Origin: a virus
Lineage: Duplodnaviria > Caudoviricetes
IMG/VR virus record: IMGVR_UViG_3300044878_000218
Coordinates: 23,517-87,516 of that record
Direction: 5' to 3' (one strand)
Length of the DNA: 64,000 nt
Shown: one piece after another, positions 15,182-62,300 of the stretch
Layout of the letters: each line of letters starts with the position of its first letter
How positions within the stretch are numbered: position 1 is the stretch's first letter
Position numbers and translations under genes: made by a program
The notes under the pieces: generated by a model
The model's input: only the letters and a program-made list of their open reading frames with translations
The model's database searches: none
Told to the model about the DNA's origin: nothing

Positions 15182-17449
15182 TTATTCCCCTACGTTCACA
15201 ATGTTTTCCGCCAACGCCTGGTCGGTCTCGCGGTGGGTAATCATCAGCACCTGCTTGGCGCTGGTGGCGATCATCGCTGCCAGGCTGGCGGCGTTGTGCT
15301 CACGGCAGGACTCGGTCGGCTCGTCGAAGATCAGCAGGGCGTCTTTGCCGTACAGCGCACGACCCAGGCCGACCCGCAGCGACACACCGATCATCGCTTT
15401 CTGTGCGCCAGACGCGCTGCTCGATGGCGCCATGATGCCGGCTTCCTCGAACATGAACTCGCCGTCGACGTTGTCGATCTTGGTGATGGTGTCCTTCGAA
15501 GCGACCCGCACCAGTCGGCTGGCGATGCCGGTGATGGTGTCCCACACTTCCTTCAGGTACTGCTGACGACGGTCACGCAGGAACTGCACCAGGCGGGTGT
15601 ACTTCTTGGACAGCACCAGGTGCTCGACCGACGCTGCGGCGCTGGATTTCAGGCCGTCCAGCTTCTCTTGTGCCGCGGCGTGCAGTTTCACGCGGAAGCC
15701 GTGCTCAGATTTGGCCTGGGTCACAGCTGCGCTCAGGCTGCTGGACTTGTCAGCCCATGCAGCGCGAGCCACCTGATATTCCTGTTCCAGCAGTTCAGCG
15801 TGGGCCAGTTCCTTCTCGGTCGGTGGCTCTGGCAGCGCTTCCAGCTCGTCGTTCAGGGTCTGCAGGCCGGCCTGCAAGGCGGTCAGTTCGTCCTGTGCCT
15901 TGGTCAACGCCTTCTGCTCAGCAACTACTCGAGTATTGTTGGCTTCGACGCCCTTCAGTTTTTCACCCATCGCTGCGTAGGAGTCACGGGCTTCGTTGAC
16001 TTGACCTTCTGCACCCGACAACTCGTCTTGGATCACGTTCAGGGCGCGCAGCGGTGCCAGGGCTTCCTTGGCTGCGGTGTGGGCAGCCAGTGCCGCGTCG
16101 ATCTTGACCGTGGCGTCTTCGAAGGCAGTCAGCTTGTCATTCAGGTTCTTCCGGCTGGTCTGGAAGGTCACCAACCCGGCCTTCAGTTCAGCGACATAGG
16201 CCACTCTGTTGTCCCACCACTTCTTGGCCTCGTCAGCTTCGGCCTTCAGTTTAACCGGGTCGTGGTCTTCCTTGGCTCGGTTGCAGGTCGGGCACACGGC
16301 GCCGTCGGACAGGCTGAGCAGGTTGTCGTATTTGGCTTTGGCCTGGCCAACAGCTTCCGACTCGCGCTCAATGTCCTTCTGCTGCGTGGCGATGTACTCA
16401 GTGACAGCATCCAGCTCGACTTCTGCTGCGTCATGATCGAACTCCGCCCAGTTGGCGGTGTAGCTCTGCTGCTGAGTGTCCAGCGCCAGATCCGTCTCGT
16501 CGACCTTCTGTTTGGCTGCCGTGGCGACGGCCAGTTCTTCAACCAGCACACCTTTGGCCGCTGCCAGTTCCAGACCCTGCGTCTTCAGGCCCGCCATGTC
16601 GTTGCGAATGGCGTCACCGTCCTGCAGGCTGACCCCTTCGACACGCATCTGCGCCTCGTTCACACGCTGCTGAGCGTGGCCGACGTTGGTTTCAGCCAGG
16701 GTGATCTTGTTGGACAGGTTGACGACGGCGTCCATCTGCTTGCGCATTTCTTTGGACGATGCCGGCACTTCCACGCTGAACGATCCGTGGGCTTCCTGCT
16801 GCTGCACAGCGGCTTCGACGTTGACGCTGGCCAATTGCAGGGCTTCCGAGGCTTCCTGCAGGTCAGCTTCAGCCGCCTTCATCACCTCGTCGTCCACCGA
16901 CTTGGCGTCAGCGTGGCTGTTGTTCACGGTAGCCTGGCGCTGGGCTTCAGCCTGGACCTTGTCGATCAGTTCGACACCGGCGAAGGCTTCGACCTTGCGG
17001 TTCAGCGCCGCAGCGCCGTATTTCAGGATGCCGGCCGAGGAACCTTGCTCAGATTGCACAAACAGGTTCCAGTCGTCAGCGACCAGACCCAGCAGTTCTT
17101 CCATCTTGGCCCGAACCGGAGTGGCGCCGTTGGCCACCAGCTCGACGCTGCCATCTGGCAGGGTGCGGGTCAGCTTGGCGGTGTTGCCGGTGCGGAAGCA
17201 GGTGTAGAGCTCAGGACCGTGCAGCTGGAAGGTGTTGGTGACGCTGAACTTGTCCTGACCCCAGGTCGGGATGTTCTCTTTCTTGACCGAGGCCATGGTG
17301 ACGCCGAAGAAGCACACGCCGATCGCTTCGAGCAGCGTGGATTTGCCGTTGGCGTTGTCGCCGGCAATGATGTTCAGGCCGGTGGTGAAATCCGCAGAGA
17401 AATTGCCGAGCTTCTTGAAGTTCTCGGTGACGCAAGTTAACAGACGCAT
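15182..17449 (-). CDS. SbcC/Rad50-like SMC ATPase (recombination nuclease subunit)
   Basis: Walker A GDNANGKST, long coiled coils, zinc hook CPTC, signature SGAQK, Walker B LIFDEPT, H-loop ITH. Confidence 0.93.
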   Translation of the reverse strand: MRLLTCVTENFKKLGNFSADFTTGLNIIAGDNANGKSTLLEAIGVCFFGVTMASVKKENIPTWGQDKFSVTNTFQLHGPELYTCFRTGNTAKLTRTLPDGSVELVANGATPVRAKMEELLGLVADDWNLFVQSEQGSSAGILKYGAAALNRKVEAFAGVELIDKVQAEAQRQATVNNSHADAKSVDDEVMKAAEADLQEASEALQLASVNVEAAVQQQEAHGSFSVEVPASSKEMRKQMDAVVNLSNKITLAETNVGHAQQRVNEAQMRVEGVSLQDGDAIRNDMAGLKTQGLELAAAKGVLVEELAVATAAKQKVDETDLALDTQQQSYTANWAEFDHDAAEVELDAVTEYIATQQKDIERESEAVGQAKAKYDNLLSLSDGAVCPTCNRAKEDHDPVKLKAEADEAKKWWDNRVAYVAELKAGLVTFQTSRKNLNDKLTAFEDATVKIDAALAAHTAAKEALAPLRALNVIQDELSGAEGQVNEARDSYAAMGEKLKGVEANNTRVVAEQKALTKAQDELTALQAGLQTLNDELEALPEPPTEKELAHAELLEQEYQVARAAWADKSSSLSAAVTQAKSEHGFRVKLHAAAQEKLDGLKSSAAASVEHLVLSKKYTRLVQFLRDRRQQYLKEVWDTITGIASRLVRVASKDTITKIDNVDGEFMFEEAGIMAPSSSASGAQKAMIGVSLRVGLGRALYGKDALLIFDEPTESCREHNAASLAAMIATSAKQVLMITHRETDQALAENIVNVGE

Positions 17450-17875: not shown

Positions 17876-18392
17876 CGTTCTCTACCGAAGCCAGGTAGTC
17901 CTTGAAGTCCGCTGCCTGGTGGTGTGAGTAACGCAGCTTGCGCCGCATCGCCACTTCCACACGCTGATCGCAAAGGCCTTCGTCCTGCATCGCAGGGATG
18001 TCCAGGCTGATCATGCCGATACAGGCAGCCAGCTCGCCCATCTCCTTGAGCAGGTGGTCCCGGTTGTTGCCTTGCATAGGGTGGTCAGGGCTGTAGCTGT
18101 CGTAGCCGTGGCGCAGGATCTTGGTGATGCAGTGCGCAACCTCAGTGCACTCCTCCGCCAGCATGACCAGTCGTTCCTGCTGCGCCGGGGTCAGACCGTT
18201 GAAGTGAGCGTTGGCAATCTGGTCGATACCTGGCTGATCAGGCTCTTGAGGACGAAGGAACAGCTCAGCGTGTCCCGCTACCTTTTCCAGCTCCTCGATG
18301 TCGCCTTCGGCCAGCAGACCTTTGTTGGTCAGCGTGTCTACGGCGTCGACCACGGTCTCAAGGATGTCGTTGACCCTATCTACTGCACTCAT
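17862..18392 (-). CDS. MazG-like nucleotide pyrophosphohydrolase
   Basis: LAEECTEV...I.KILRHG...L..EMGEL all-alpha NTP-PPase pattern. Confidence 0.65.
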   Translation of the reverse strand: MSAVDRVNDILETVVDAVDTLTNKGLLAEGDIEELEKVAGHAELFLRPQEPDQPGIDQIANAHFNGLTPAQQERLVMLAEECTEVAHCITKILRHGYDSYSPDHPMQGNNRDHLLKEMGELAACIGMISLDIPAMQDEGLCDQRVEVAMRRKLRYSHHQAADFKDYLASVENDEQA

Positions 18393-19462
18393 GCCATCAC
18401 CTTCGATACCAGTTCAGCGAACAGCGGCGCCAGATCGGTGCCTTCCAGATCCCGAGCAATGCGGGTCTTCAGGTCTTCGACGACCACGCCCTCGATGTCG
18501 GTGTCCACGTCCTGCAGCGAATCCTTGATCTCGACCCGATTGCGCACGGCGAACATCTCGGTGACCTCGACTTCCTCGCCTTCCGGCACGTAGAACGATG
18601 CTTTCCAGACCTCGCGGATGTACTCGCTGACCGCCACAGCGTCCGCCACCGACTCGGCGCCGATGACGTCGACGAACTGAACCCCGGTCAGGTCGGGGAT
18701 CTCGCTGCCCATCTTGATCTCGCGGTAGCGATCCTTCTCGGACCACACCAGATTCTTGGTCAGGGTGGCCGTCTCCAGCTCCAGGTCGTAGGTGAACTTG
18801 TCACCGATGTCATGGAAGCTGGTCGGGTGGGTGTTGCCGAGGACAACGACTTGGCCGCCAAGGTCAGTCGAACCGTTGTGCTCATGGCCGATGAAGATGT
18901 AATCGAAGCTGCCGATCAGTTCCTGCGCCATGGCGCGGGGCAGGTTCAGCGTGTTGTCCGTGGCTGCCAGCTGGAAGTCGTAGTTGCAATGCAGGAACAG
19001 GTAGCTGGCCAGACCATCGCGGTTGTGGGCAGCGTGGGCAGCAGCCTCGCGCATCGCCACCTCGAAGATCTCTTGGCTGGCATGATGCGGCACGAAGTAC
19101 ATCGACTCGAAGCAGTCGAAGTACGGGTCGGTCAGGTTCGGCGCTGCAATGATCGGGCAGCCCTGCTCTTTCAACAGACGCAGCGACGACATGGTGCCTT
19201 CACGGTTGGTCTCGTCATGGTTGCCGGCCAGGGTCCACTTGCATCCCATGGCCACAGCGAAGCCCTGAGCGATGACCTCTTCCTTGTTGAACGACTTGTC
19301 GAACAGGTCGCCGACGCAGACCTTCGGGTGCTCGCCGGTGCTGACAATGGCCATAGCCTGGTGGAACAGTTCCATCTTCAGCGCGTCAGACGACTCGCGG
19401 GTGGTGTGCGCTGCCCGGCTGGTGCCCAGGTGCGGGTCGGTAAAGATCGTGATGTTCTTCAT
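18389..19462 (-). CDS. SbcD/Mre11-like metallophosphoesterase nuclease
   Basis: DPHLG, GDLFD, GNHD, GHEH motifs; partner of the SbcC-like gene. Confidence 0.92.
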   Translation of the reverse strand: MKNITIFTDPHLGTSRAAHTTRESSDALKMELFHQAMAIVSTGEHPKVCVGDLFDKSFNKEEVIAQGFAVAMGCKWTLAGNHDETNREGTMSSLRLLKEQGCPIIAAPNLTDPYFDCFESMYFVPHHASQEIFEVAMREAAAHAAHNRDGLASYLFLHCNYDFQLAATDNTLNLPRAMAQELIGSFDYIFIGHEHNGSTDLGGQVVVLGNTHPTSFHDIGDKFTYDLELETATLTKNLVWSEKDRYREIKMGSEIPDLTGVQFVDVIGAESVADAVAVSEYIREVWKASFYVPEGEEVEVTEMFAVRNRVEIKDSLQDVDTDIEGVVVEDLKTRIARDLEGTDLAPLFAELVSKVMA

Positions 19463-28593: not shown

Positions 28594-29037
28594 TTAGGCG
28601 CCTTGGCGGATCTCGAAGTGTTTCTCTTCGAGGCGGAAGCCCAGCTCGCGGGCGATCTCTTCGATCACACGGCGTTCGCCCGGCTCGATCTCGCCGTCTG
28701 CCTTGGCGATGGCGAGGATGTTCAGCATCACGTCTTCGATGTGCTCTTCGTTGCCGCCGATCTGGCGGATCTCACGCAGGATCGCTGCACGGCCCAGTTC
28801 GAAGTCCGATTCCAGCTTGTCAGTGAACTTCTGGATCACCTTGCTGATCTCGTTGCCGAAGTGCTTCAGGTTGTCGTTGCTGCGCACCAGGCGGTCGATC
28901 TTCTGCGACTCTTCCTTTTCAATGGTGCCGTCGGAGGCTGCAACCAGCAGCTGGCCGCCGATGATGGCTTCCATCAGGTCCTTGTTTTCGATTTTCTTGG
29001 CGCCGCGGAAGATGTTGCCGAATGCTTTCTTGAACAT
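28594..29037 (-). CDS. TerB-family (tellurite resistance-like) protein
   Basis: LVAASDG.IE.EE, IAKADGEIEP.E..VI.EIA..LG. Confidence 0.85.
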   Translation of the reverse strand: MFKKAFGNIFRGAKKIENKDLMEAIIGGQLLVAASDGTIEKEESQKIDRLVRSNDNLKHFGNEISKVIQKFTDKLESDFELGRAAILREIRQIGGNEEHIEDVMLNILAIAKADGEIEPGERRVIEEIARELGFRLEEKHFEIRQGA

Positions 29038-29078: not shown

Positions 29079-29714
29079 TTACTGGCCAGCGACCTTGTCA
29101 GCGCGCTCTTGGGCGGCCTTGTCGCTGTAGCCGTTCTTGTAACGCTTGCCCAGCAGCTTGATCTTGTTGAACAGCTGGGTTTCAACCATCGACGTCTGGA
29201 TGCCGTTCAGCAGGCCCACGACATAGAACTCAGCGTCGCCGGCTTCTTCACGGACGTTGTGGCCATCCAGCGGAGCGCCAAGGATGTGGCTGCAGACCTG
29301 ATCCAGCATCTCAGCAGCTTCACCAGCCAAGCCGATGGCCATGTGCAGCAGGTGCGCCTTGTCGGCGTCGAGGGCGTCGAAGGCGGAGGCCAGGCCTTGG
29401 CTGCTTGGCAGCTTGAAGTATTCAACTTCCGGCAGAGTGGCGAGGTCTTTGTTGTAGACCACGTGCTTCTTCAGGCGGTCCAGCTCGTTGCCCTTGTCGA
29501 TGATCAGGGCGCTGATCTGCAGCAGGTTCAGGAAGCCGGAGAATTTCAGGCTGTCCTTGATGGCTTGGCCAGGCTTGGCCAGATCGGTGACCATACCGTC
29601 GAAGGTGGTGTCGAGGATCTTGTGCTGGTCAGCTTGGGTCAGCTCAGGCAGAGCCTGGGCGATCAGTTGTTCGTGGGCGTTGCGCAGAGCGGCATCGTGG
29701 GCATAGATAGACAT
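29079..29714 (-). CDS. MazG-like nucleotide pyrophosphohydrolase
   Basis: LLHMAIGLAGEAAE.LD, EEAGDAEFY, N..KL..RY..GYSD.AA.ERADK. Confidence 0.85.
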   Translation of the reverse strand: MSIYAHDAALRNAHEQLIAQALPELTQADQHKILDTTFDGMVTDLAKPGQAIKDSLKFSGFLNLLQISALIIDKGNELDRLKKHVVYNKDLATLPEVEYFKLPSSQGLASAFDALDADKAHLLHMAIGLAGEAAEMLDQVCSHILGAPLDGHNVREEAGDAEFYVVGLLNGIQTSMVETQLFNKIKLLGKRYKNGYSDKAAQERADKVAGQ

Positions 29715-41900: not shown

Positions 41901-43881
41901 CGCGCTTCTGCAAGACCAGCTTGGCGGCTGCCACTGCAGCGTCCCGGAACTCAGGGCGGGAGTTGCCCAGGACCTGAACGTGCAGGTGGCCTGGGGTCTG
42001 GATGCTGGTGTACAGCTGATCCAGCTGCGCCCAGTCTTCCAGCAGGCGGTGGATCTTGCGGTGCTGTTCCATGTCGATCATGGGTGCGGTACTCCGCAGT
42101 CAGCGCAGAAGATCGCCCCGGTCCCGGCGTGGCCAAGCCACGTCGGGTGGGTGCAGAACGCCTGCTGGATGGCCTTGGCTGCCTCGTAGACGTAGGGGTT
42201 GAGGTCGTAGATCCCCTCGTCCTGAACCTCGCCCTGCAGCTTCAGCTTGAAGCCGTTGGCCAGGCAGATCTCGCGGATCTGTTCGTTACTCAGCAGCCTC
42301 ATGCTCGGCCTCCTTGACGAATACACGGATGTCCCGGCCACACACGGTGACGTCGCGCTTACGCAGCTTCGAGGTCACCCGGTATTTGTCAGCGCGCTCG
42401 TCGTAGCTGATGACGCGACCACGGTCCAACTGCAGGCGGATCGACCAGGTGACGACCTGGCCCACCTCGATGTCCGGCACCGGGACACCGGCATTTTTCA
42501 GGGCAATGTCCACGGCCTTGCGGAAGTTGCGCGGCGACAGCTGGGTCATCTCGGCCGGCTGAGCCATGAGCACGTCGACCTGGGCCTTGCTGAGCAGCGT
42601 GCCTTTGTGGAAGATCTCGATCATTCCGAGACCTCCGCTACCGGCTTCGGGATGCACTCCGGGCAGGCCGTCTCCAGATGGACCCCTTCATGGTCCTTCT
42701 CGGTGGTCGACACAACCTTGGTGCCGTCGCAGACGTGGCACACGCCGTCTTCACGGATGCCCAGCTTTGGCAGCCCGCCCTTGAGGGTGACCTGCACGGC
42801 GCCGAACTCAGGGCTGTGGCCTTCCATGGTGACACCGGCAGCTGCCTCTTCCTTGGAGATCCGCCCTTCTTGCTTGGCGATCAGCATCTGTGCGCTGACC
42901 ACCGACTGCAGGAAGCGGAACTGGCCGACCTCCTTGAAGATCTTGCGGTGGAAGGCGGCGCGGGCAATCTTCTTCACCTGGTGCGAAGGCATGCCCAGCG
43001 CCGAGATGTCGGTCAGCGGGTTGCGGCTGTTGGGGTGCAGCATCACCGCCTTGATGTTGAATCCAGTGCTGAGCTCATGGATCGAGAGCGGCGCCTGGAA
43101 CCCTTTCTGGTGGCCGGACTCAACGCACAGGGCGAAGTCGAAGTCCATGCCGCCGACCTGCTGCTTCCACTGGAAGTAGCACGGTGCGTCGATCAGGCCT
43201 GCTGCGGTGCGGACCTGTACCACTGATTTTGCTTTCATACCCATTCCTTACTGTCGAGCCAGAGGTTGATGTCGTACTTCATCACCGGTGAAACCAGTGG
43301 ATCTTCGAGGGCCGCAGCCATCCAAGCGCCCACCAGCTTGTCTTCTTCGGTGGCTTTGGAGGTCATGAACCGTAGGCCCACGACCTCCGCCTGCCGTACC
43401 CGGGTACGGTTGATCTTTTTGTTGGCGATAACACCCTGCCAACTCTTCACCGCCTCGTTCGCCTCGTCGATGTGCGCGGCTTCCTCGAAGATCTTGGTGC
43501 CGTTGCTCAGGGTCAGCTGCACCCCGAGCGGCTGCTTGATCTCGACGTTGCACAGTGCCGACTGTCCATGCCACCAATCAGCGTGCATCTTGGCCCGGTC
43601 GATACACTCGAACCACTCGACCTGGCCTGGCTGATTTCCGTTGGTGTTGTTGGCGGTAACCTTGATTTTCATGCTTCCCCTTCCTTAACCAGCACACTTA
43701 TCTCCTCACCGTGGTAAGCCAGCCCTGCTACGTCCAGCTGGGCGCCGTCGCTGGTCAAGGTGGTAGTCACCTCGACCAGTCTGTCCATCAGGTCATTACG
43801 AGCCTGGGCGGCGTCCATCCCTTCAATGTTGACCTTTCCTCGGAGGGTCAAGGTGTATTCCAGATGCTGCAGGTCCATCAC
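38899..43881 (-). other. Cluster of tightly packed small hypothetical phage ORFs (e.g. 39844-40236, 40245-40679, 40673-41251, 41809-42081, 42621-43244, 43235-43672, 43669-43881)
   Basis: Overlapping start/stop codons, same strand, no recognisable domains. Confidence 0.6.
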
Positions 43882-45941
43882 GCGCTCTCCTGCATCTCGC
43901 GGCCCAAGGCCCAGCGAGGGATGTTTGCTGAGACCAGTGCACGGGCCAGGCCCGGTGGCACCGAGTTGCCGACCATGCGAACTTGCGCATGCTTCGGAAG
44001 TGCTTTGCCCATCACGACTTCATGCTGATAGTCAGCCGGGAAGCCTTGGCAGCGGTACAGCTCATGCGGCTCCAGCATTCGCATGCCGATGTCGACGATC
44101 TGGTAGTCCTGACCCTTGATGGTGACCAGACCGAAGCGCGCCTTGCTGGTGATGGTGTCCAGCGGTTCGTTGCAGCCCACCGCACCGCCGGTGCCATAGA
44201 ACTTGATCAGGAAGGCCTGCACCTCGGCGAAGTGGTTGCCCTGGGCACCGATGGTGTCCAGTGGGCGATCCAGCGGCTGACCGTGCTTGCAGGTGCCTTT
44301 CAGTTTGATCAGGCTGCTGGCGACCACGGCCGACTTGCCGCCGCCACCGGCAGTGATGGCGCCCAGCGGTTCATCGGCGCTGTGGCCGATGCTGTTGCCG
44401 AAGTCGCGCTGGATGTGAGCCACTTCGATGGCGTCGTTCAGGTCCTGTACCGGATCAATCGACTCCAGCGTGCATTCCATCACCGAGTTGTGGTCACGGG
44501 CGGTGATGGTCGGCAGCGGTTTGTCCAGGGTCTGGCCAACCACGCCGGTGAAGTGCTTGAGCAGTGCTGCCACTTGGATGTGGCGGTTCTTGCTGGTCAC
44601 TACTGACAGCGGCTCGTCGAAGCCGCGGCTGGTATCACCGGTGCTCTGGTGGTCGATGGTGGAAATGCAGCCCATCACCAAGGGCTCCAGCGTCGTTTCC
44701 AGCACGCCGAGGGCATGAGCCGCACCAGCAGGCCGGGCGGCGCCGCCGCCGGCTGTAATCGTTGGCAGCGGGTCGTTGCAGCTGGTGCCGCCCGAGTCAC
44801 CGCGGAACTTCATGATCGCTGCAGCTGAGGTCAGCTGCGATTCCACGTTGCTGAAGTCACGGACCATGGCGATGTCGACCAGACCGGTGCCGTGCTTGCT
44901 GGTCAGGGTGGCGATCGGCTCGTTCAGCGGCTGGCCACGGAACATGTCGCCGCCGTGGTTGACCTTGACGAGGAACGCATCGTCCCCGGCGCCGATGACG
45001 AACTTCTGGATGCCCTTGAAGATACGGGCCAGGGTCTTCTCGGCCAGCGGCTTCTTGCGGTCGAAGATCGACGGGCAAGGGATGCTGAAATCGAGGTTTT
45101 CACCGGCGGTCTTCCACGGCTGCAGCTTGCCCGGGTTGGCCTTGATCAGCTTGGGGCTGGCGTGGGTTGGCTCGGGCCAGATGATAGGCAGCCCGTCCTT
45201 GCGGGCCATCAGGAAGAAGCGGTTGCGGGTGGTCGGGTCGCCGTAGTCACAGGCGTTGAGGCCTTTCTCGCGCCACTCGACCTGATACCCAGCCTCACGC
45301 AGCTGCTTGACGAACTGCTTGAAGGTCTGTCCGGCGCGCTTCTTGTCCGGCACCAGCGCCTGATCCCAGTAGCGGACCTGTTCGCCTGGCTCGCTGACCA
45401 CCTCGTTCATCACCGGGTTGCCGTCCTTGTCCTTCTTCACAGGGTCGGCGACCAGCTTGATGACGCGCTTGGTGACCTTGCAGCGTTTGGCAATCAGCGG
45501 ACCCCAGGTCATGAATTCCTTCACGTTCTCCATGAAGACCATGGCCATGTCGGCTTGGCCTACCCACTTCTTGACGATCCAGGCCAGGCCGCGGATGGCC
45601 TTCTTCACTGGCTTGCCGCCTTTGGCGACGGAGAAGTGCGTGCAGTCAGGGCTGAACCAGCCCATCAAGGCTGGCTCGTTGTTCAATGCTTTGGGGATGT
45701 TGATGTCCCACACCGACTCGTTGTAATGCTTGGTGGTGGGGTGGTTCTGTTCGTGCATCATCAGCGCTTCAGCGTTGTGATTCACGGCGATGTCAGGGGA
45801 GAAGCCGAGGCCTTGGGCGATGCCAGTGCTGGCGCCGCCGCCACCGGCGAAGTTGTCAGCGACCTTGCCGCCGATCCAACGGTAATTCGCAGGCATGGGG
45901 AGGGTGTTGATGTCTCGCATCGTAAATCCTTTAGGCGCCAC
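43878..45941 (-). CDS. C5 cytosine DNA methyltransferase with repeat-expanded variable region
   Basis: FAGGGGAS (I), SPDC (IV), ENV.EF (VI), TRNRFF (VIII), RML...L...QGFP (IX), GNSV (X). Confidence 0.93.
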   Translation of the reverse strand: MAPKGFTMRDINTLPMPANYRWIGGKVADNFAGGGGASTGIAQGLGFSPDIAVNHNAEALMMHEQNHPTTKHYNESVWDINIPKALNNEPALMGWFSPDCTHFSVAKGGKPVKKAIRGLAWIVKKWVGQADMAMVFMENVKEFMTWGPLIAKRCKVTKRVIKLVADPVKKDKDGNPVMNEVVSEPGEQVRYWDQALVPDKKRAGQTFKQFVKQLREAGYQVEWREKGLNACDYGDPTTRNRFFLMARKDGLPIIWPEPTHASPKLIKANPGKLQPWKTAGENLDFSIPCPSIFDRKKPLAEKTLARIFKGIQKFVIGAGDDAFLVKVNHGGDMFRGQPLNEPIATLTSKHGTGLVDIAMVRDFSNVESQLTSAAAIMKFRGDSGGTSCNDPLPTITAGGGAARPAGAAHALGVLETTLEPLVMGCISTIDHQSTGDTSRGFDEPLSVVTSKNRHIQVAALLKHFTGVVGQTLDKPLPTITARDHNSVMECTLESIDPVQDLNDAIEVAHIQRDFGNSIGHSADEPLGAITAGGGGKSAVVASSLIKLKGTCKHGQPLDRPLDTIGAQGNHFAEVQAFLIKFYGTGGAVGCNEPLDTITSKARFGLVTIKGQDYQIVDIGMRMLEPHELYRCQGFPADYQHEVVMGKALPKHAQVRMVGNSVPPGLARALVSANIPRWALGREMQESA

Positions 45942-54631: not shown

Positions 54632-55450
54632 TCACTTGCTCGCAGTTGTGTCAGGTACATGTTCAGGCTCCCACAGAAGGCATCCGGTGGCGGCGATGTC
54701 GGCCTTGAAGTCCAACATCAGTTGAGGGGCGCGGGCTTCCAGCAGCGCTGTCAGCTCTTCCCGTGGCAGGCTCAGCTGCTCCTCCGTGGCTTCCGGCCAC
54801 ATGGCACAGCGGCGGGCTGCGTCAAAGTCGCGTTCCTTGCCTTCGCCGTGTTTCCAGGTCGGCTCCCAAAACAGGCGAGGGATGGCGACCGGCAGGGTCT
54901 TCGAGTCATACATGTCCTGCAGCCGGTACAGAGGCAGGTTGGTGATGTCCTCGTCATCGCTCAAAGGCGTTTTCAATGCACATCCGGTGGCATCAGCACG
55001 CAGGCTCCAGACCGGGTCCTTGGTGCGACCGTTGATGATCTGGCGCTTCTCGCCCTTGAGCAGGCCGTTGTGGTCCCGATTACCTGCAAGGTAGGTGGAG
55101 TTGGCGATGTAGTGCATGCCGCCAGCGCTGCTCATGAAGTGCCAGCGGATCAGGTGTTTCAGCTCGGGGAAGGCCTTCTCGATCATGTCGTGGATGCAGC
55201 CTCCCACGTCCCAGTCCCGGCTCTTCCAGACACCTTCCCAGCCGTGGCCGGTGACGGCGAAACTGTTGTGGCCGTTGCCACAGTTGTCGTCGAAGCGCAC
55301 CTCGGCGTGAAGCAGCCACTTGGTGCCGTCGATGGTCTTGGTGCGGCGCTCGCTGAGCCAGGTCTGGTGCAGGAACAGGCCGGGTTTACCTTGCTTTGGT
55401 ACGACGGTCAGGCGGCCAGGTACGCCACACAGGGTTGCTTGAGTTTCCAT
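54632..55450 (-). CDS. Hypothetical protein (paralogue A)
   Basis: FDDNCGNGHNSF, GGCIHD, PELKHL..WH, WPEA. Confidence 0.65.
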   Translation of the reverse strand: METQATLCGVPGRLTVVPKQGKPGLFLHQTWLSERRTKTIDGTKWLLHAEVRFDDNCGNGHNSFAVTGHGWEGVWKSRDWDVGGCIHDMIEKAFPELKHLIRWHFMSSAGGMHYIANSTYLAGNRDHNGLLKGEKRQIINGRTKDPVWSLRADATGCALKTPLSDDEDITNLPLYRLQDMYDSKTLPVAIPRLFWEPTWKHGEGKERDFDAARRCAMWPEATEEQLSLPREELTALLEARAPQLMLDFKADIAATGCLLWEPEHVPDTTASK

Positions 55451-55469: not shown

Positions 55470-55485
55470 TGTTCCACGTGGAACA
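55470..55485. other. parS: parS site 1 (TGTTCCACGTGGAACA)
   Basis: Perfect 16-bp palindrome matching the Pseudomonas chromosomal ParB site; intergenic. Confidence 0.85.
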
Positions 55486-55486
55486 T

Positions 55487-56020
55487 TTAGGGGTGAAGTT
55501 TCAGGCCGGTGGCGGCGAGGTCGCTGCGGAACTGTTCCTGCATGGCCGGGAGGCGGGCGATCAGGGCCTTCTCCAGTTCGCCGCGCGGCCCGGTGAGCAG
55601 TTCCTCCGGGGCGTCGGGCCACAGGCAGTTCTCCCGGGCCAGGTCCAGCTGACCGTGCTCGGCGCGGAAGACCGTGTTCTCGATGTAGTACATCGGCACC
55701 CCGTCTTCACACAGGTGCCACTTGGCCAGGTGCTTGATCTCCGGCCAGAACTTCATCTCGTCTCGGTCCACCAGCGGGCCGCTGGTGCCGCCGAAGTTAA
55801 AGCGCATGCCGAAGTGATTGCTGGTGTTGCTCGGGTGGCCACGTTCGTAGTCAATGACGATGTCGAACACGCCGCCCGGCTTGAACTCGCGGCGGGCAAA
55901 GAATTCCTGCCGTGCCCACAGGCCGTTGGGGCCTGCCTCTTGGATCAGGTAGCCGGGGATGCCCAGCAGGGTGTGAGGTTTTGCTTTGACCTTGTCTTCG
56001 GCCTTCATCCAATAGTTCAT
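55487..56020 (-). CDS. Hypothetical protein (paralogue B)
   Basis: PEIKHLAKWH, WPDA..E.L..PR.EL shared with 54632-55450. Confidence 0.65.
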   Translation of the reverse strand: MNYWMKAEDKVKAKPHTLLGIPGYLIQEAGPNGLWARQEFFARREFKPGGVFDIVIDYERGHPSNTSNHFGMRFNFGGTSGPLVDRDEMKFWPEIKHLAKWHLCEDGVPMYYIENTVFRAEHGQLDLARENCLWPDAPEELLTGPRGELEKALIARLPAMQEQFRSDLAATGLKLHP

Positions 56021-56391
56021 ACGTCCTCCTCGATGAACACAAAGAAGGCGTACACGCTTTCCTGGCCATCGTCGTCTTCGTTGTCGGGTTCGAGGTCGAG
56101 GAACAGCTGGCGCTCCTCGGGGTCGGCCGGTTCGACTTCAACTACCCCGGTATGCGCCGGCTTGGCGGTGATGTCGCTGACGGCCCGTTTGGCCGCCTCC
56201 CACCACTCATCGCTGAGGTCGTCGGCGATGACCCTTCCCGCAACCGCGCCTTCATTCAGCTCGCTGTGCAGGGATTGTTTCAGCTCCTTGAGGGTCATGC
56301 CGTTCCAGACGATGACTTGGATGTGAGGTAGATGGTGGCCTCCCCAGTAGCTGGGGAGGCAGGTGTCGGCGTGTGCGGCGGTGAGTTTCAT
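56017..56391 (-). CDS. Hypothetical protein
   Basis: DTCLPSYWGGHH N-terminus; GGAG RBS. Confidence 0.6.
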   Translation of the reverse strand: MKLTAAHADTCLPSYWGGHHLPHIQVIVWNGMTLKELKQSLHSELNEGAVAGRVIADDLSDEWWEAAKRAVSDITAKPAHTGVVEVEPADPEERQLFLDLEPDNEDDDGQESVYAFFVFIEEDV

Positions 56392-56409
56392 ATTGGCTCC
56401 GAGGTACGG

Positions 56410-56425
56410 TGTTCCACGTGGAACA
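56410..56425. other. parS: parS site 2 (TGTTCCACGTGGAACA)
   Basis: Perfect palindrome, intergenic. Confidence 0.85.
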
Positions 56426-56426
56426 T

Positions 56427-56684
56427 TTAGGCTTTGATCAGCAGGGCATCGGCTTCGCCGCGAGACTTGAGGTCCAGGGTCTCGCTATAGCCTTGGCAGA
56501 TCACGCCGTTGGTGAAGCCGGCGCTGACCGGCGTCTTGTAGTGGCGTTCCCAGTCGTTCGGGTTGCCGTTCTTGAACGACTTCAGGTGATTGACCGTGTC
56601 GGCCATGTCGCTGTGGTGGTAACGGGAAGGGAACATGAAGATCTCTTCGGTGCCTTCTTCGTTCTTGGTGACGATGTATTTCAC
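56427..56684 (-). CDS. Hypothetical protein
   Basis: GTG start (MKYIV) after AAGGAG; VSAGF...C.G.SETL.L.SR. Confidence 0.6.
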   Translation of the reverse strand: MKYIVTKNEEGTEEIFMFPSRYHHSDMADTVNHLKSFKNGNPNDWERHYKTPVSAGFTNGVICQGYSETLDLKSRGEADALLIKA

Positions 56685-56700
56685 GGTGACTCCTTGGTTG

Positions 56701-56716
56701 TGTTCCACGTGGAACA
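56701..56716. other. parS: parS site 3 (TGTTCCACGTGGAACA)
   Basis: Perfect palindrome, intergenic. Confidence 0.85.
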
Positions 56717-56918
56717 TTTGATTAATCGTCGGCTTCGGCGCCGCAGTGGATGCACTCGCCGTCTTCCATCTCATGCTCACAGCTGACTTCGAGCATGTCG
56801 GCTTGTTGCTGCACCTGGTCGAGATGATCGAGCAGCTGCAGGGTGTGCTCAGGGCCGAGCCAGCCGCCGTTCTTGGCGCCTTGGCGGATGTCGGCTATGA
56901 CTTTGCGGCTGAGTCGGC

Positions 56919-57218
56919 TCATGAATCCTCCGGTGTTCCACGTGGAACAATTTGCAGATCCGCCTTGGCTTTGCGTTCCAGCCGGCGGGCAATGAGTTTG
57001 GCCATCTCCTCCGGCGTGGTGCCGAAGCGCTCGGCCAGTTCGCCCAGGACCTTGCGCAGTTCGGTGGACAGGGCTTTCACCCGTTCCACCTGCGCCTTGT
57101 GGGCGGGGCTGGCGAGGTGCTGGTTCAACCGCACCTCGGCCATCTCCATCTCGTAGGCCAAAGTGCCGGGCAGGTTCTGGATCTGCGGTTCGCTGGGTTT
57201 GCGTCCGGTGGGTGTCAT
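56919..57218 (-). CDS. Hypothetical coiled-coil protein
   Basis: ORF whose 3' end carries parS site 4. Confidence 0.55.
   Translation of the reverse strand: MTPTGRKPSEPQIQNLPGTLAYEMEMAEVRLNQHLASPAHKAQVERVKALSTELRKVLGELAERFGTTPEEMAKLIARRLERKAKADLQIVPRGTPEDS
56934..56949. other. parS: parS site 4 (TGTTCCACGTGGAACA)
   Basis: Perfect palindrome in the last codons of ORF 56919-57218, just upstream of the next RBS. Confidence 0.85.
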
Positions 57219-57462: not shown

Positions 57463-57828
57463 TCATAGCCGCTCCAGTTTGCCCTTGAAGGACACGTCGA
57501 TCCGCAGTGGGCGGGATTCGTAGAAGAAGATCCCGTTGCAATACGGGCACTCGGCCAGGCTGTCCCACATCTCGCCGCTGCCTTTGGCGGGGCGCCGGGC
57601 CTTGAGGCGGTGGTCACAGTCCGGGTTGGGGCAGTCGAATTCGTGGTGATCCAGCATGTGGTTACGCTGCCAGTAGGCTTCGTAGCGCTGGGCCATGGTT
57701 TCTTCAACGACCGGGACCTCGACCACTTCCGGCTCCACTGGCTGCTTCCAGCCGCAGGAACAATCGTGGCACTCGCCGTCGCCGGCCATGAGGTAGTTAT
57801 TGCACTCTCGACAGTAGAGGCTCTTCAT
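57463..57828 (-). CDS. Cys-rich zinc-ribbon protein
   Basis: CREC, C.DCSCG, CPNPDC, CPYC. Confidence 0.55.
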   Translation of the reverse strand: MKSLYCRECNNYLMAGDGECHDCSCGWKQPVEPEVVEVPVVEETMAQRYEAYWQRNHMLDHHEFDCPNPDCDHRLKARRPAKGSGEMWDSLAECPYCNGIFFYESRPLRIDVSFKGKLERL

Positions 57829-58132
57829 AGAGGGAGTCCTTGTATTCGTTGGCGGCCGTGGTCAGCGTGGTGCGGGCCATGTTCAGCTTGCGGCAGATCA
57901 CCTTCCACGCCACCTTCTGCTCGCGCAGTTCGTAGGCCTGCTTTCCTATCGCACCTGTGGCGCGCTTGGTGCTGCCTGGCTTGCGAGGGGTGATGCCGTT
58001 GCGGTGCAGGTAATTGATGATGGTGGCGCGGTTCACAAAGTAGACCTCGGCCAGTTCGGGGCTGGTCTCGCCGGCCACGTACCGCGCCACCATCTCGGCT
58101 TCCTTTTCCGGGGAGAGGACGTATTTAGCCAC
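57797..58132 (-). CDS. Double helix-turn-helix DNA-binding protein
   Basis: Y.AGETSPELAEVYFVNRATIINYL and WKVICRKLNMARTTL. Confidence 0.7.
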   Translation of the reverse strand: MAKYVLSPEKEAEMVARYVAGETSPELAEVYFVNRATIINYLHRNGITPRKPGSTKRATGAIGKQAYELREQKVAWKVICRKLNMARTTLTTAANEYKDSLYEEPLLSRVQ

Positions 58133-60371: not shown

Positions 60372-61691
60372 TTAATCGCTACTTAGCGAGAAAGGTTTGT
60401 GTCGATACGTGTAGCCTCCCTGCGACAGTACCCCCGTAATGTAGAAGGTCCCGTTGCTGCTCCAGAGCGGCGCTCTCGGCGATTGCAACCGCCGTGCCCA
60501 CTTGGCCTTGGCGAGATGGTTGTAGCGCAACTCTGTCGCCGCGCCTCGCAGTTGCTGCTCACACTTGAAGTGCGGCGACACCTGCAACATCTCGATGGCC
60601 TCCTCGATCACCTCTGGCGTGATGAAGGTCTCACCTCGCCTACGGAAATCATAGACGGCAAACTCGGCCCAGTTGGCCACAGATACACCGGTAAGTAGCG
60701 ACATTCCGACGAACGTCACAGCGGACATCTTCGCGGTCTTCAATACTTTATGGTTTAGCCGCTGAATTATGAGCCTGGCTGTGACCACCTCAGCGTCGTG
60801 CAAGCGGTCCTCGTTGGTGCCTTTGAGGTCCAGATCCTCCCACGGTTTCTCGAACACGCGGCGGACAGCGCGGGTAAAGACGACATCGTCCACCACCAGG
60901 TCGTTACGCCCACGGGCAGCGAACTCGGTCATCTCACCGCCGTCCGGGTCCATCAGCCGGGTCGCCTCGGCCATCACCTCCAACTTCATCGCGGTCAGCG
61001 TGCGGCGCAGCGTGGCTGGGTACGCACCTTGGTTGATGAGCAGCCTGGCGTAGCTGGAACTGGCCGGCAGGTCGAGCAGGTACTGCTGCTTGAAGTTGAT
61101 GTGGTTGTACTTCTTCGGCGGCTCCTCGTAGCTGGCGTCGTAGCACTCGTCAGCGTGGATGTGGGGGAACTGCGCACCGAAGCCCAGGATCGGCAGCTGA
61201 CGGGCCAGCTGCTTGTTCGGGACGTAGGGGTCGGGGAAGAACTCCATCAGATCCACGGCCTTGTGCGCCAGCTCCTCCACCGCGCTGATGGGGATGCCAC
61301 CGAGCAGGTAGGAGACGAGCAGCGGGCTGACCAGATCGACGCCGCGTTCGCCGAGGGCAGCCTTGATCAGGACGTTGCAGTAGGCGGTGAGCACCTTGTC
61401 ACCGTAACGCGCCGGGCCAATCAGGATGCGTGCCGGCTTGCTGCCGAGGCCCAGTGCATCGAGTAGGGAACCGGCGTAGGTCATGGCGGCGTGCATCATC
61501 TCGTCGCTGTCGGCACCGATGGTGGCGCCGGTGACCCGGTGGCTGGCGGACTCGTTGCCGGCAGGCAGATAGCAGTTGAGGCTATGGGCGCGGTGCCGAG
61601 AGGCCTTGGGAGGTTTGTTGCGCAGGCGCTCTAGGGCGGGCCTTTCAAGCTTGGCCTTGAGCTGATAGGGGCTGACCAGTGAAAATTCCAT
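60372..61691 (-). CDS. Large hypothetical protein (439 aa) beside the AT-rich region
   Basis: Long ORF with GGAG RBS; no family recognised. Confidence 0.65.
   Translation of the reverse strand: MEFSLVSPYQLKAKLERPALERLRNKPPKASRHRAHSLNCYLPAGNESASHRVTGATIGADSDEMMHAAMTYAGSLLDALGLGSKPARILIGPARYGDKVLTAYCNVLIKAALGERGVDLVSPLLVSYLLGGIPISAVEELAHKAVDLMEFFPDPYVPNKQLARQLPILGFGAQFPHIHADECYDASYEEPPKKYNHINFKQQYLLDLPASSSYARLLINQGAYPATLRRTLTAMKLEVMAEATRLMDPDGGEMTEFAARGRNDLVVDDVVFTRAVRRVFEKPWEDLDLKGTNEDRLHDAEVVTARLIIQRLNHKVLKTAKMSAVTFVGMSLLTGVSVANWAEFAVYDFRRRGETFITPEVIEEAIEMLQVSPHFKCEQQLRGAATELRYNHLAKAKWARRLQSPRAPLWSSNGTFYITGVLSQGGYTYRHKPFSLSSD
60376..60389. promoter_or_regulatory. Palindromic motif TCGCTA-CT-TAGCGA (candidate operator)
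   Basis: Same motif as at 17473 and 20785, again at a gene 3' end. Confidence 0.5.
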
Positions 61692-62300
61692 AAAAACTCC
61701 ATATAAGGCCCAGTAAACACTGGGGGTCGGGTCTTTAGTATAAAGTTGGTCTCTCCATGACGTCTATGAGAGAAAACGACTTTGGCGAAAAAGTTAATCA
61801 GGCGGTCCATTACCCACTCCTTTGTGAGTAAAGTTCTCGCGACGGTTTCGCCGATGCGAATAATTCCACTGATGGCCACCTGCCCATTTACGATAAGAGA
61901 TAAGGGGAAGGTGACGAATTTACGCAGGCTGCAGGGGATCGCGTCGGTTTGGTGGAAAAAGTGGAGGGAGGCTGTATGGCTTGTGGTGGAAGGGGTTGAG
62001 GCGGAAGGGGAGGGTTTTGGGGCGGGTTTGGCTGCTTATTTGTGTAGAAATAAAGGTCAAACCTCGATATCTGTTTTCCAAAAGCACCCCCAGTATTAGG
62101 TTTTCGAAAAAGTCGCCTTTTATGAAAAGCGATATCAACGATTCAGCTCTCCCTCCATTACACCTTTATACTCCCCCATACCCCCTCTATACCCCCTCTT
62201 TCTTTAACTTATGTAATAAGTAATAAGTAAGCCTTTCTGGCATGCACCTTGCATGTATGGCTCATTGTCATCATTCTTTTGTTTTGCTGCGCAAAACCAC
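61692..62300. other. AT-richer, compositionally skewed region with short repeats (candidate origin, terminus or control region)
   Basis: Loss of the high-GC3 coding pattern, G-rich then C-rich tracts, GTAATAA repeats. Confidence 0.5.

Follow-up and report, generated by a model that had tools for sequence, protein, structure and literature searches.

Four perfect copies of a Pseudomonas chromosomal parS site form a candidate host-ParB loading cluster in a phage genome

We analyzed a 64-kb stretch of phage DNA (here called the window), the last 64 kb of the 87,516-bp virus record IMGVR_UViG_3300044878_000218, for a cluster of four perfect copies of the 16-bp palindrome TGTTCCACGTGGAACA, a chromosomal parS site of Pseudomonas. 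The best reading of this cluster, judged from sequence, is that of a cis-only site for host ParB, as exact copies of a Pseudomonas parS in a genome with no detectable ParA or ParB are likely to load the host ParB clamp on the phage DNA. Taking all readings that involve host ParB together, we consider such loading during infection highly probable, since ParB should be loaded at any perfect parS inside a Pseudomonas cell, whatever its location. That host ParA then positions or segregates the phage DNA is the use of the sites that we favor, and we hold it tentatively, at somewhat short of an even chance.

The four palindromes start at positions 55470, 56410, 56701, and 56934, at spacings of 940, 291, and 233 bp, and lie within 1,480 bp as one cluster. 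With up to three mismatches to TGTTCCACGTGGAACA allowed, the window holds five matches, against a mean of 0.17 and a maximum of 2 in 100 shuffles; with up to four allowed across the whole 87,516-bp genome, the sole extra match is a three-mismatch site at 42065. The Markov expectation for the exact word is 3-6e-5 copies per genome, and TGTTCCACGTGGAACA represents the only 16-mer family with at least three copies in the genome. These counts bear out the original prediction made for this DNA as to the four exact palindromes and their positions, and extend its observation of no further full copy from the window to the entire genome. A 20-mer common to sites 1 to 3, AAATGTTCCACGTGGAACAC, had been overlooked. 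The geometry of stop and start codons likewise agrees with the predicted placement of three sites between genes and the fourth in the last codons of an open reading frame (ORF). On the minus strand, site 1 (55470..55485) begins 1 nt past the TAA of ORF 55487-56020 and ends 19 nt before an ATG at 55450, site 2 (56410..56425) lies 1 nt past a TAA and 18 nt before an ATG at 56391, and site 3 (56701..56716) lies 5 nt past a TAA and 16 nt before a GTG at 56684, whereas site 4 (56934..56949) occupies the final codons of ORF 56919-57218, 11 nt before an ATG at 56922.

The word itself is well characterized: TGTTCCACGTGGAACA is parS2 and parS3 of Pseudomonas aeruginosa, to which ParB binds with an enrichment that extends beyond 20 kb (PMC5098823), and is the listed parS of Pseudomonas putida (PMC7022226). 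In the family to which G011 belongs (its record is titled Halopseudomonas), 101 of the 121 genomes examined contain the exact form, and none contains a reversed control. One copy is found in 43 of these host-family genomes, two in 49, three in 5, and four in 4, while 20 have no exact copy; since the maximum is four perfect copies, a single phage genome equals the top host count. At two host loci checked, the word lies in or beside recF/gyrB. The predicted identity of the word as a Pseudomonas chromosomal parS is thus upheld by both the literature and these genomes, but not its specificity to Pseudomonas, as many other phyla carry it and the word alone therefore names no host. The extended word was matched in about 130 bacterial stretches, none of the 80 listed being titled Pseudomonas. 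The phage cluster resembles the parS1-4 cluster of P. aeruginosa and the parS of P. putida in the identical 16-mer (parS2/parS3) and in having four clustered sites (PMC5098823, PMC4368675, PMC7022226). In contrast to chromosomal parS1-4, the phage copies do not lie beside oriC, are all four perfect, and have no parAB in cis. Capture of the sites from a host locus together with flanking DNA is unsupported, as the phage flanks match those of none of the 30 host loci inspected.

The record is rated 100% complete and has a 127-bp end overlap. The phage is related to Lana, a Pseudomonas phage (74% identity across 57% of a 7.5-kb region), and its capsid protein is 92% identical to that of Lana, 89% to that of PMBT3, and 82% to that of UAntarctica, three cultured relatives above 80% identity that all infect Pseudomonas. 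PMBT3 is described as virulent and without lysogeny genes (PMC8421299), and Lana as having a latent period of about 107 min and a burst of about 20 (PMC7368026); the term "parS" is absent from the main texts of both papers. The genome encodes DNA polymerase, primase, helicases, ligase, SbcCD-like subunits, HU, and a cytosine methylase, and the block of small genes that holds the cluster would be early, from its position ahead of the replication genes. A search of GTDB genomes with the capsid, which reaches close relatives only, found no relative, and no RNA holder was among the matches listed.

The predicted absence of ParB and ParA from the window extends to the entire genome. No ParB_N, TIGR00180 ParB, AAA_31 ParA, DndB, or phage integrase turned up in six-frame searches, while control genomes responded, and a deviant Walker A motif was not found. 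Among the 125 called ORFs, Pfam gave no partition, repressor, or plasmid Rep family, and PHROGs, covering 100 of the 125, gave no partition or repressor family. A very divergent binder may still sit among the unannotated ORFs. A 439-aa ORF at 60372-61691 (minus strand), conserved in Lana-like phages with 38 homologues and given a confident, nearly all-helical model (pLDDT 85.6), was considered as a hidden ParB and rejected: no Pfam family was found in the 38 homologues, and neither sequence nor Foldseek searches matched the PDB. An almost entirely helical protein with no PDB match argues against a ParB-like fold.

These searches bear on whether the palindromes are instead operators for a phage protein, either a helix-turn-helix (HTH) protein or an unrecognized protein of ParB fold, which we regard as very improbable. 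The HTH protein (111 aa, 57797-58132, minus strand; Pfam HTH matches below cut-off) is the sole protein found close to the cluster that is a candidate for sequence-specific DNA binding; its gene lies 850 bp upstream and is missing, like the cluster, from the closest relatives, and many small ORFs have no family. However, the HTH protein is unmatched in the site-bearing Pseudomonas phages Lana, SYP, UAVern, and KPP25, and its one homologue in 12 other phage genomes belongs to the site-less G010, which weakens an operator role. Nor is the conserved 439-aa ORF ParB-like by its model, and an operator would not be expected to be identical to the host word.

In the reading that we favor, the host ParB clamp would load on the phage DNA at the four parS copies, and host ParA would then position the phage genomes and separate their copies as it does for the chromosome origin. 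The benefit would be that phage DNA is kept on the nucleoid and that, in a cell that grows slowly or is still dividing, genomes reach either half. We favor positioning by ParA because it is the effect that such a site has on nearby DNA in this genus, is independent of position, and is a documented use in phage phi29. An ectopic parS shifts nearby DNA to 0.2/0.8 of cell length via ParA (PMC5098823), parS recruits Smc-ScpAB (bioRxiv 10.1101/2020.05.18.101659), and parAB-parS of P. aeruginosa stabilizes a test plasmid in Escherichia coli (PMC4820964). The lone site of Lana, at 29287 in the convergent gap after the lysis genes, suggests that position is not important; the orthologous spacers of Lana have no site. 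A long latent period would give positioning time to matter. The spacers are likely used as free space in a tightly packed operon and not for control of the adjoining genes. Of the cis-only centromere mimic originally proposed, the core is supported as the best reading, with the exact word, the lack of par genes, and the Pseudomonas-infecting relatives in its favor; the idea has precedents, and neither a service as a mark against Wadjet nor a phage-plasmid state is supported.

With respect to precedent, phi29 carries five parS sites, read by host Spo0J for prespore entrapment together with Spo0A boxes (PMC2731898), and SGI1 carries parS mimics that hijack the ParABS system of IncC plasmids (PMC10954446). 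The pattern used here finds four consensus sites in phi29 itself, where the paper counts five, and phi29 was matched directly by BLAST with site 4. It is likewise a virulent-type phage with several host-type parS sites, and no phage ParA or ParB was found here. It differs in that its sites are spread over 8 kb and serve spore entrapment with Spo0A boxes, whereas ours form a 1.5-kb cluster absent from most relatives. Pseudomonas does not sporulate, so prespore segregation of the phi29 kind does not apply to this phage. SGI1 offers a cis-only mimic of another replicon's centromere with both partition and titration; there, however, the target is the ParB of a helper plasmid, and the mimic belongs to an integrative island that adds the Sci protein (PMC10954446). 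In the present phage the word is chromosomal, and no integrase was found. Phage-plasmids such as P1 encode their own ParA and ParB and are temperate, whereas no ParA, ParB, or temperate marker was found in this phage. The likeness to phage-plasmids, P1 among those named in PMC12704722, lies in a partition site on phage DNA. The cluster works like the phi29 and SGI1 cases while being a member of neither, and it is not a phage-plasmid system. Our literature search, with most subscription papers and supplements outside its reach, found no paper that describes parS sites of the host type on phages of Pseudomonas, and phi29 was the only printed case that it found of a virulent phage using host ParB.

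Other phages carry the word as well. BLAST queries of 30 nt each, taken from around site 3 and site 4, matched many phages, phi29 included, with partial matches mixed in. With at most one mismatch allowed, sites occur in the unrelated Pseudomonas phages SYP (6), UAVern (4), KPP25 (1), and PPSC2 (1), and further in Amme-3 (3), phiPMW (3), COT4 (2), and Bitten (2), with 0 for the controls in both sets; as these eight were chosen from BLAST matches, the counts give no frequency. Several of the sites have a stop codon on one side and a terminator-like hairpin on the other, and ParB_N was absent from all five phages tested. Achromobacter phage 2-1, with one single-mismatch site inside a gene, was left out of the counts. 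In IMG/VR, we estimate from 3 of 64 parts that the word is present in about 2,600 stretches, compared with 66 in a full scan for one center-swapped control, an excess of about 40-fold over that one control word in viral contigs. Contamination by host chromosomes is unlikely to lie behind this excess over a single control word: when the longest ORF was taken from each of 40 loci among the 121 retrieved, 29 of these ORFs matched a PHROG and 16 matched a family for virion, packaging, or lysis functions.

All three sites of the P. putida phage phiPMW carry a variant with one central change (L574:582, 802). The 5-kb microvirus MN379634 carries the exact word twice, at a distance of 32 bp, in the gap that precedes its replication gene (L201:3016-3063), and several further microvirus records match the same BLAST query. 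In 21 viral stretches (L402-L422), copies of the word are paired at most 30 bp apart.

Several points weigh against our reading of the cluster. From relatives only do we infer that the host of this phage is a Pseudomonas. Among 10 IMG/VR capsid relatives searched with at most one mismatch, a single one has a site (G002, at the position of Lana's), that is, one of the seven at 90% completeness or more and one of eight when UAntarctica, which has none, is added. The other seven near-complete relatives and the syntenic fragment G001 are thus without sites, as is PMBT3, isolated as a virulent phage. Absence from most relatives and from PMBT3 makes the sites accessory and dispensable. The other phages are also not clean examples of reliance on the host, since in four of the eight a DndB-family gene lies directly beside a parS or near-parS: SYP (L197:7655-9125), UAVern (L198:4521-6020), Amme-3 (L573), and COT4 (L575). 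DndB, which is ParB-like (PMC12704722), was found in just these 4 of 19 genomes tested, this phage and Lana being without it. Lasting carriage is argued against by the lack of any temperate or plasmid marker and of a capsid relative in GTDB genomes, and the suggested phage-plasmid or carrier state is unsupported on the same grounds (no integrase, repressor, or plasmid Rep) and given that its relative PMBT3 is described as virulent. Finally, one parS is enough for chromosome segregation (PMC5098823), so that four copies fit competition for ParB equally well, and sequence cannot separate positioning from titration.

Such competition would make the phage DNA a sponge: its multiplying sites would draw ParB away from the host origin, and hence ParA and Smc too, and chromosome segregation or division would stall to the phage's gain. 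We consider this unlikely, though it deserves serious attention. The four perfect copies equal the top count in the 121 host-family genomes, 92 of which have one or two, and a burst of about 20, as in Lana (PMC7368026), would give about 80 sites. SGI1 destabilizes IncC plasmids through the copy number of its parS mimics (PMC10954446), and Par stoichiometry matters in P. aeruginosa (PMC4368675). Yet parB is nonessential in Pseudomonas, its loss being mild with 2-10% anucleate cells (PMC7022226), and Lana and KPP25 hold one site each where a sponge would favor many more.

A comparison of orthologous loci indicates how the sites may have arisen. The site 1 locus is identical to the spacer of G006 except for 15 nt inserted directly after the stop codon, and site 2 takes the place of a 10-11-nt C/A-rich spacer of Lana and G001. 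G001 is the sister in the capsid tree (support 98/97; UAntarctica left out of the tree), and in this closest relative the codons that correspond to site 4 contain a broken near-palindrome. The flanks of Lana's site are nearly identical to those of site 4. Gain of the cluster in this lineage is the simpler reading, with decay in G001 as the alternative, and by these comparisons the cluster looks like a recent, optional gain. An assembly artifact was rejected, as the site flanks are collinear with Lana and G001.

Sequencing runs add to this picture. Contigs of run X1, which may be the source of the record and hence is not independent, span all four sites with zero differing letters and hold the window sequence without differences at a depth of about 1,000. 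The same run contains a site-less, G001-like variant at a depth of about 320, about a third of the main depth; its loose end at 56410 is identical to the spacer of G001. Run X3 comes from a different study. One of its contigs spans site 1 and differs from the window at 14 positions in 155 nt, with no difference listed inside the site; other pieces cross site 2 and the 31-33 nt that surround site 4, the latter with one differing letter, before running into unlike sequence. At the depth of 4-6 in X3, with differences at piece ends not listed, pieces possibly from more than one phage, and site 3 and the HTH gene outside the coverage, the diverged relative keeps site 1 and probably sites 2 and 4. 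Run X2 bridges site 1 at depth 2, its differences not being listed.

Under a neutral or transient origin, the palindrome would have arisen once from a near-site and been copied by recombination without benefit. Most relatives do lack a site, G001 holds its near-site in the codons of site 4, and the site-less G001-like variant co-occurs in run X1. We nevertheless doubt this origin strongly, given four perfect copies plus a fifth elsewhere in Lana, the roughly 40-fold excess in viral contigs, and the intact site 1 in the X3 relative, the last being weak alone, at about 1 in 5 by chance. Little more probable, in our view, is that the shared 20-mer is a junction for swapping small genes, or a stem for mRNA processing, with ParB binding incidental. 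Sites 1 to 3 share 20 nt, all four sites lie at gene boundaries, the X3 contigs that reach sites 2 and 4 run into unlike sequence adjoining them, and every site folds as a 6-bp stem ahead of a ribosome site. The folding, however, is no better than that of shuffles (z, 0.25 to -0.95), and a terminator scan gave chance level. Site-less relatives also reshuffle the same small genes, and a junction needs no exact host parS word. A junction role may explain the spread of the copies rather than their retention.

The distance of 11-19 nt from each site to the next start codon bears on yet another reading, in which spreading ParB would coat the phage DNA and either damp the small-gene block or hide the DNA from nucleases and SMC-type surveillance. 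ParB spreads over more than 20 kb (PMC5098823) and represses genes beside parS3/4 (PMC7022226), and overproduced ParB silences the plasmid gene repA (PMC4368675); in the cited work, though, wide silencing required excess ParB. No promoter-like site was found in the cluster, and the only one in 52-64 kb, at 61766, compares with 2.4 expected by chance; moreover, Lana's site lies at a convergent gene end. As for surveillance, Wadjet is described as sensing size and shape independent of sequence and cleaves circular DNA under about 100 kb (PMC10586767), which makes parS no known mark of self and leaves the proposed evasion of Wadjet by chromosome-like DNA unsupported. We therefore regard a ParB coat as improbable.

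Returning to the use of host ParB for positioning, what is new here is a siphovirus lineage that includes sisters both with and without sites, so that orthologous spacers allow the gain to be followed. Since the reason in phi29 is spores, use of host ParB by Pseudomonas phages too would mean that a second, general benefit must exist. If this holds true, candidate benefits are DNA positioning, survival of host division, and stalling of host segregation. The trait requires no gene and escapes annotation. Direct tests are feasible, as site-bearing Lana, KPP25, and Amme-3 (on P. putida KT2440) are cultured, par mutants of Pseudomonas survive, and the cluster is present in some close relatives and absent from others, which provides a natural comparison. 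More speculatively, in a reading that we consider rather unlikely, lytic phages of nonsporulating bacteria may repeatedly evolve cis-only centromeres, by which host ParA, ParB, and Smc would carry their genomes to both daughters of slow or starving cells, a hidden carrier route without a phage gene. As part of this same speculation, the present lineage could be a gain in progress, with a near-site in a sister, a perfected site at four junctions, a separate copy in Lana, and mixed sisters in one sample.

The genes around the sites are all encoded on the minus strand. Site 1 is followed by a 272-aa hypothetical protein (54632..55450; orthologue of Lana gp102, no Pfam family) and preceded by one of 177 aa (55487..56020; Lana gp103). 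These two look paralogous, as each matches the other's orthologue in relatives at about 30% identity. Next come a 124-aa hypothetical protein after site 2 (56017..56391; Lana gp104), an 85-aa hypothetical protein between sites 3 and 2 (56427..56684; Lana gp105, whose start it shares), a 66-aa ORF between sites 4 and 3 (56722..56922) that has no tblastn match in the relatives' loci tested, and a 99-aa hypothetical protein whose 3' end contains site 4 (56919..57218; Lana gp108).

Elsewhere in the genome, SbcC- and SbcD-like subunits are encoded at 15182-17449 and 18389-19462 (minus strand) under the PHROG label palindrome-specific endonuclease, and the phage keeps four perfect palindromes. At least eight 6-bp palindromes are wholly missing from the genome, which encodes a 687-aa C5 cytosine methylase at window positions 43878-45941; together these suggest restriction avoidance. 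A search of GTDB genomes with the methylase found no locus. A gene for an HU-family nucleoid protein (L193:3620-3910) and one tRNA-Gln (L193:3154-3230) precede the packaging genes. A lone TerB gene lies at window positions 28594-29037 (minus strand); its search of GTDB genomes gave three loci, none in Pseudomonas, and PMBT3 and Lana are reported to carry TerB too.

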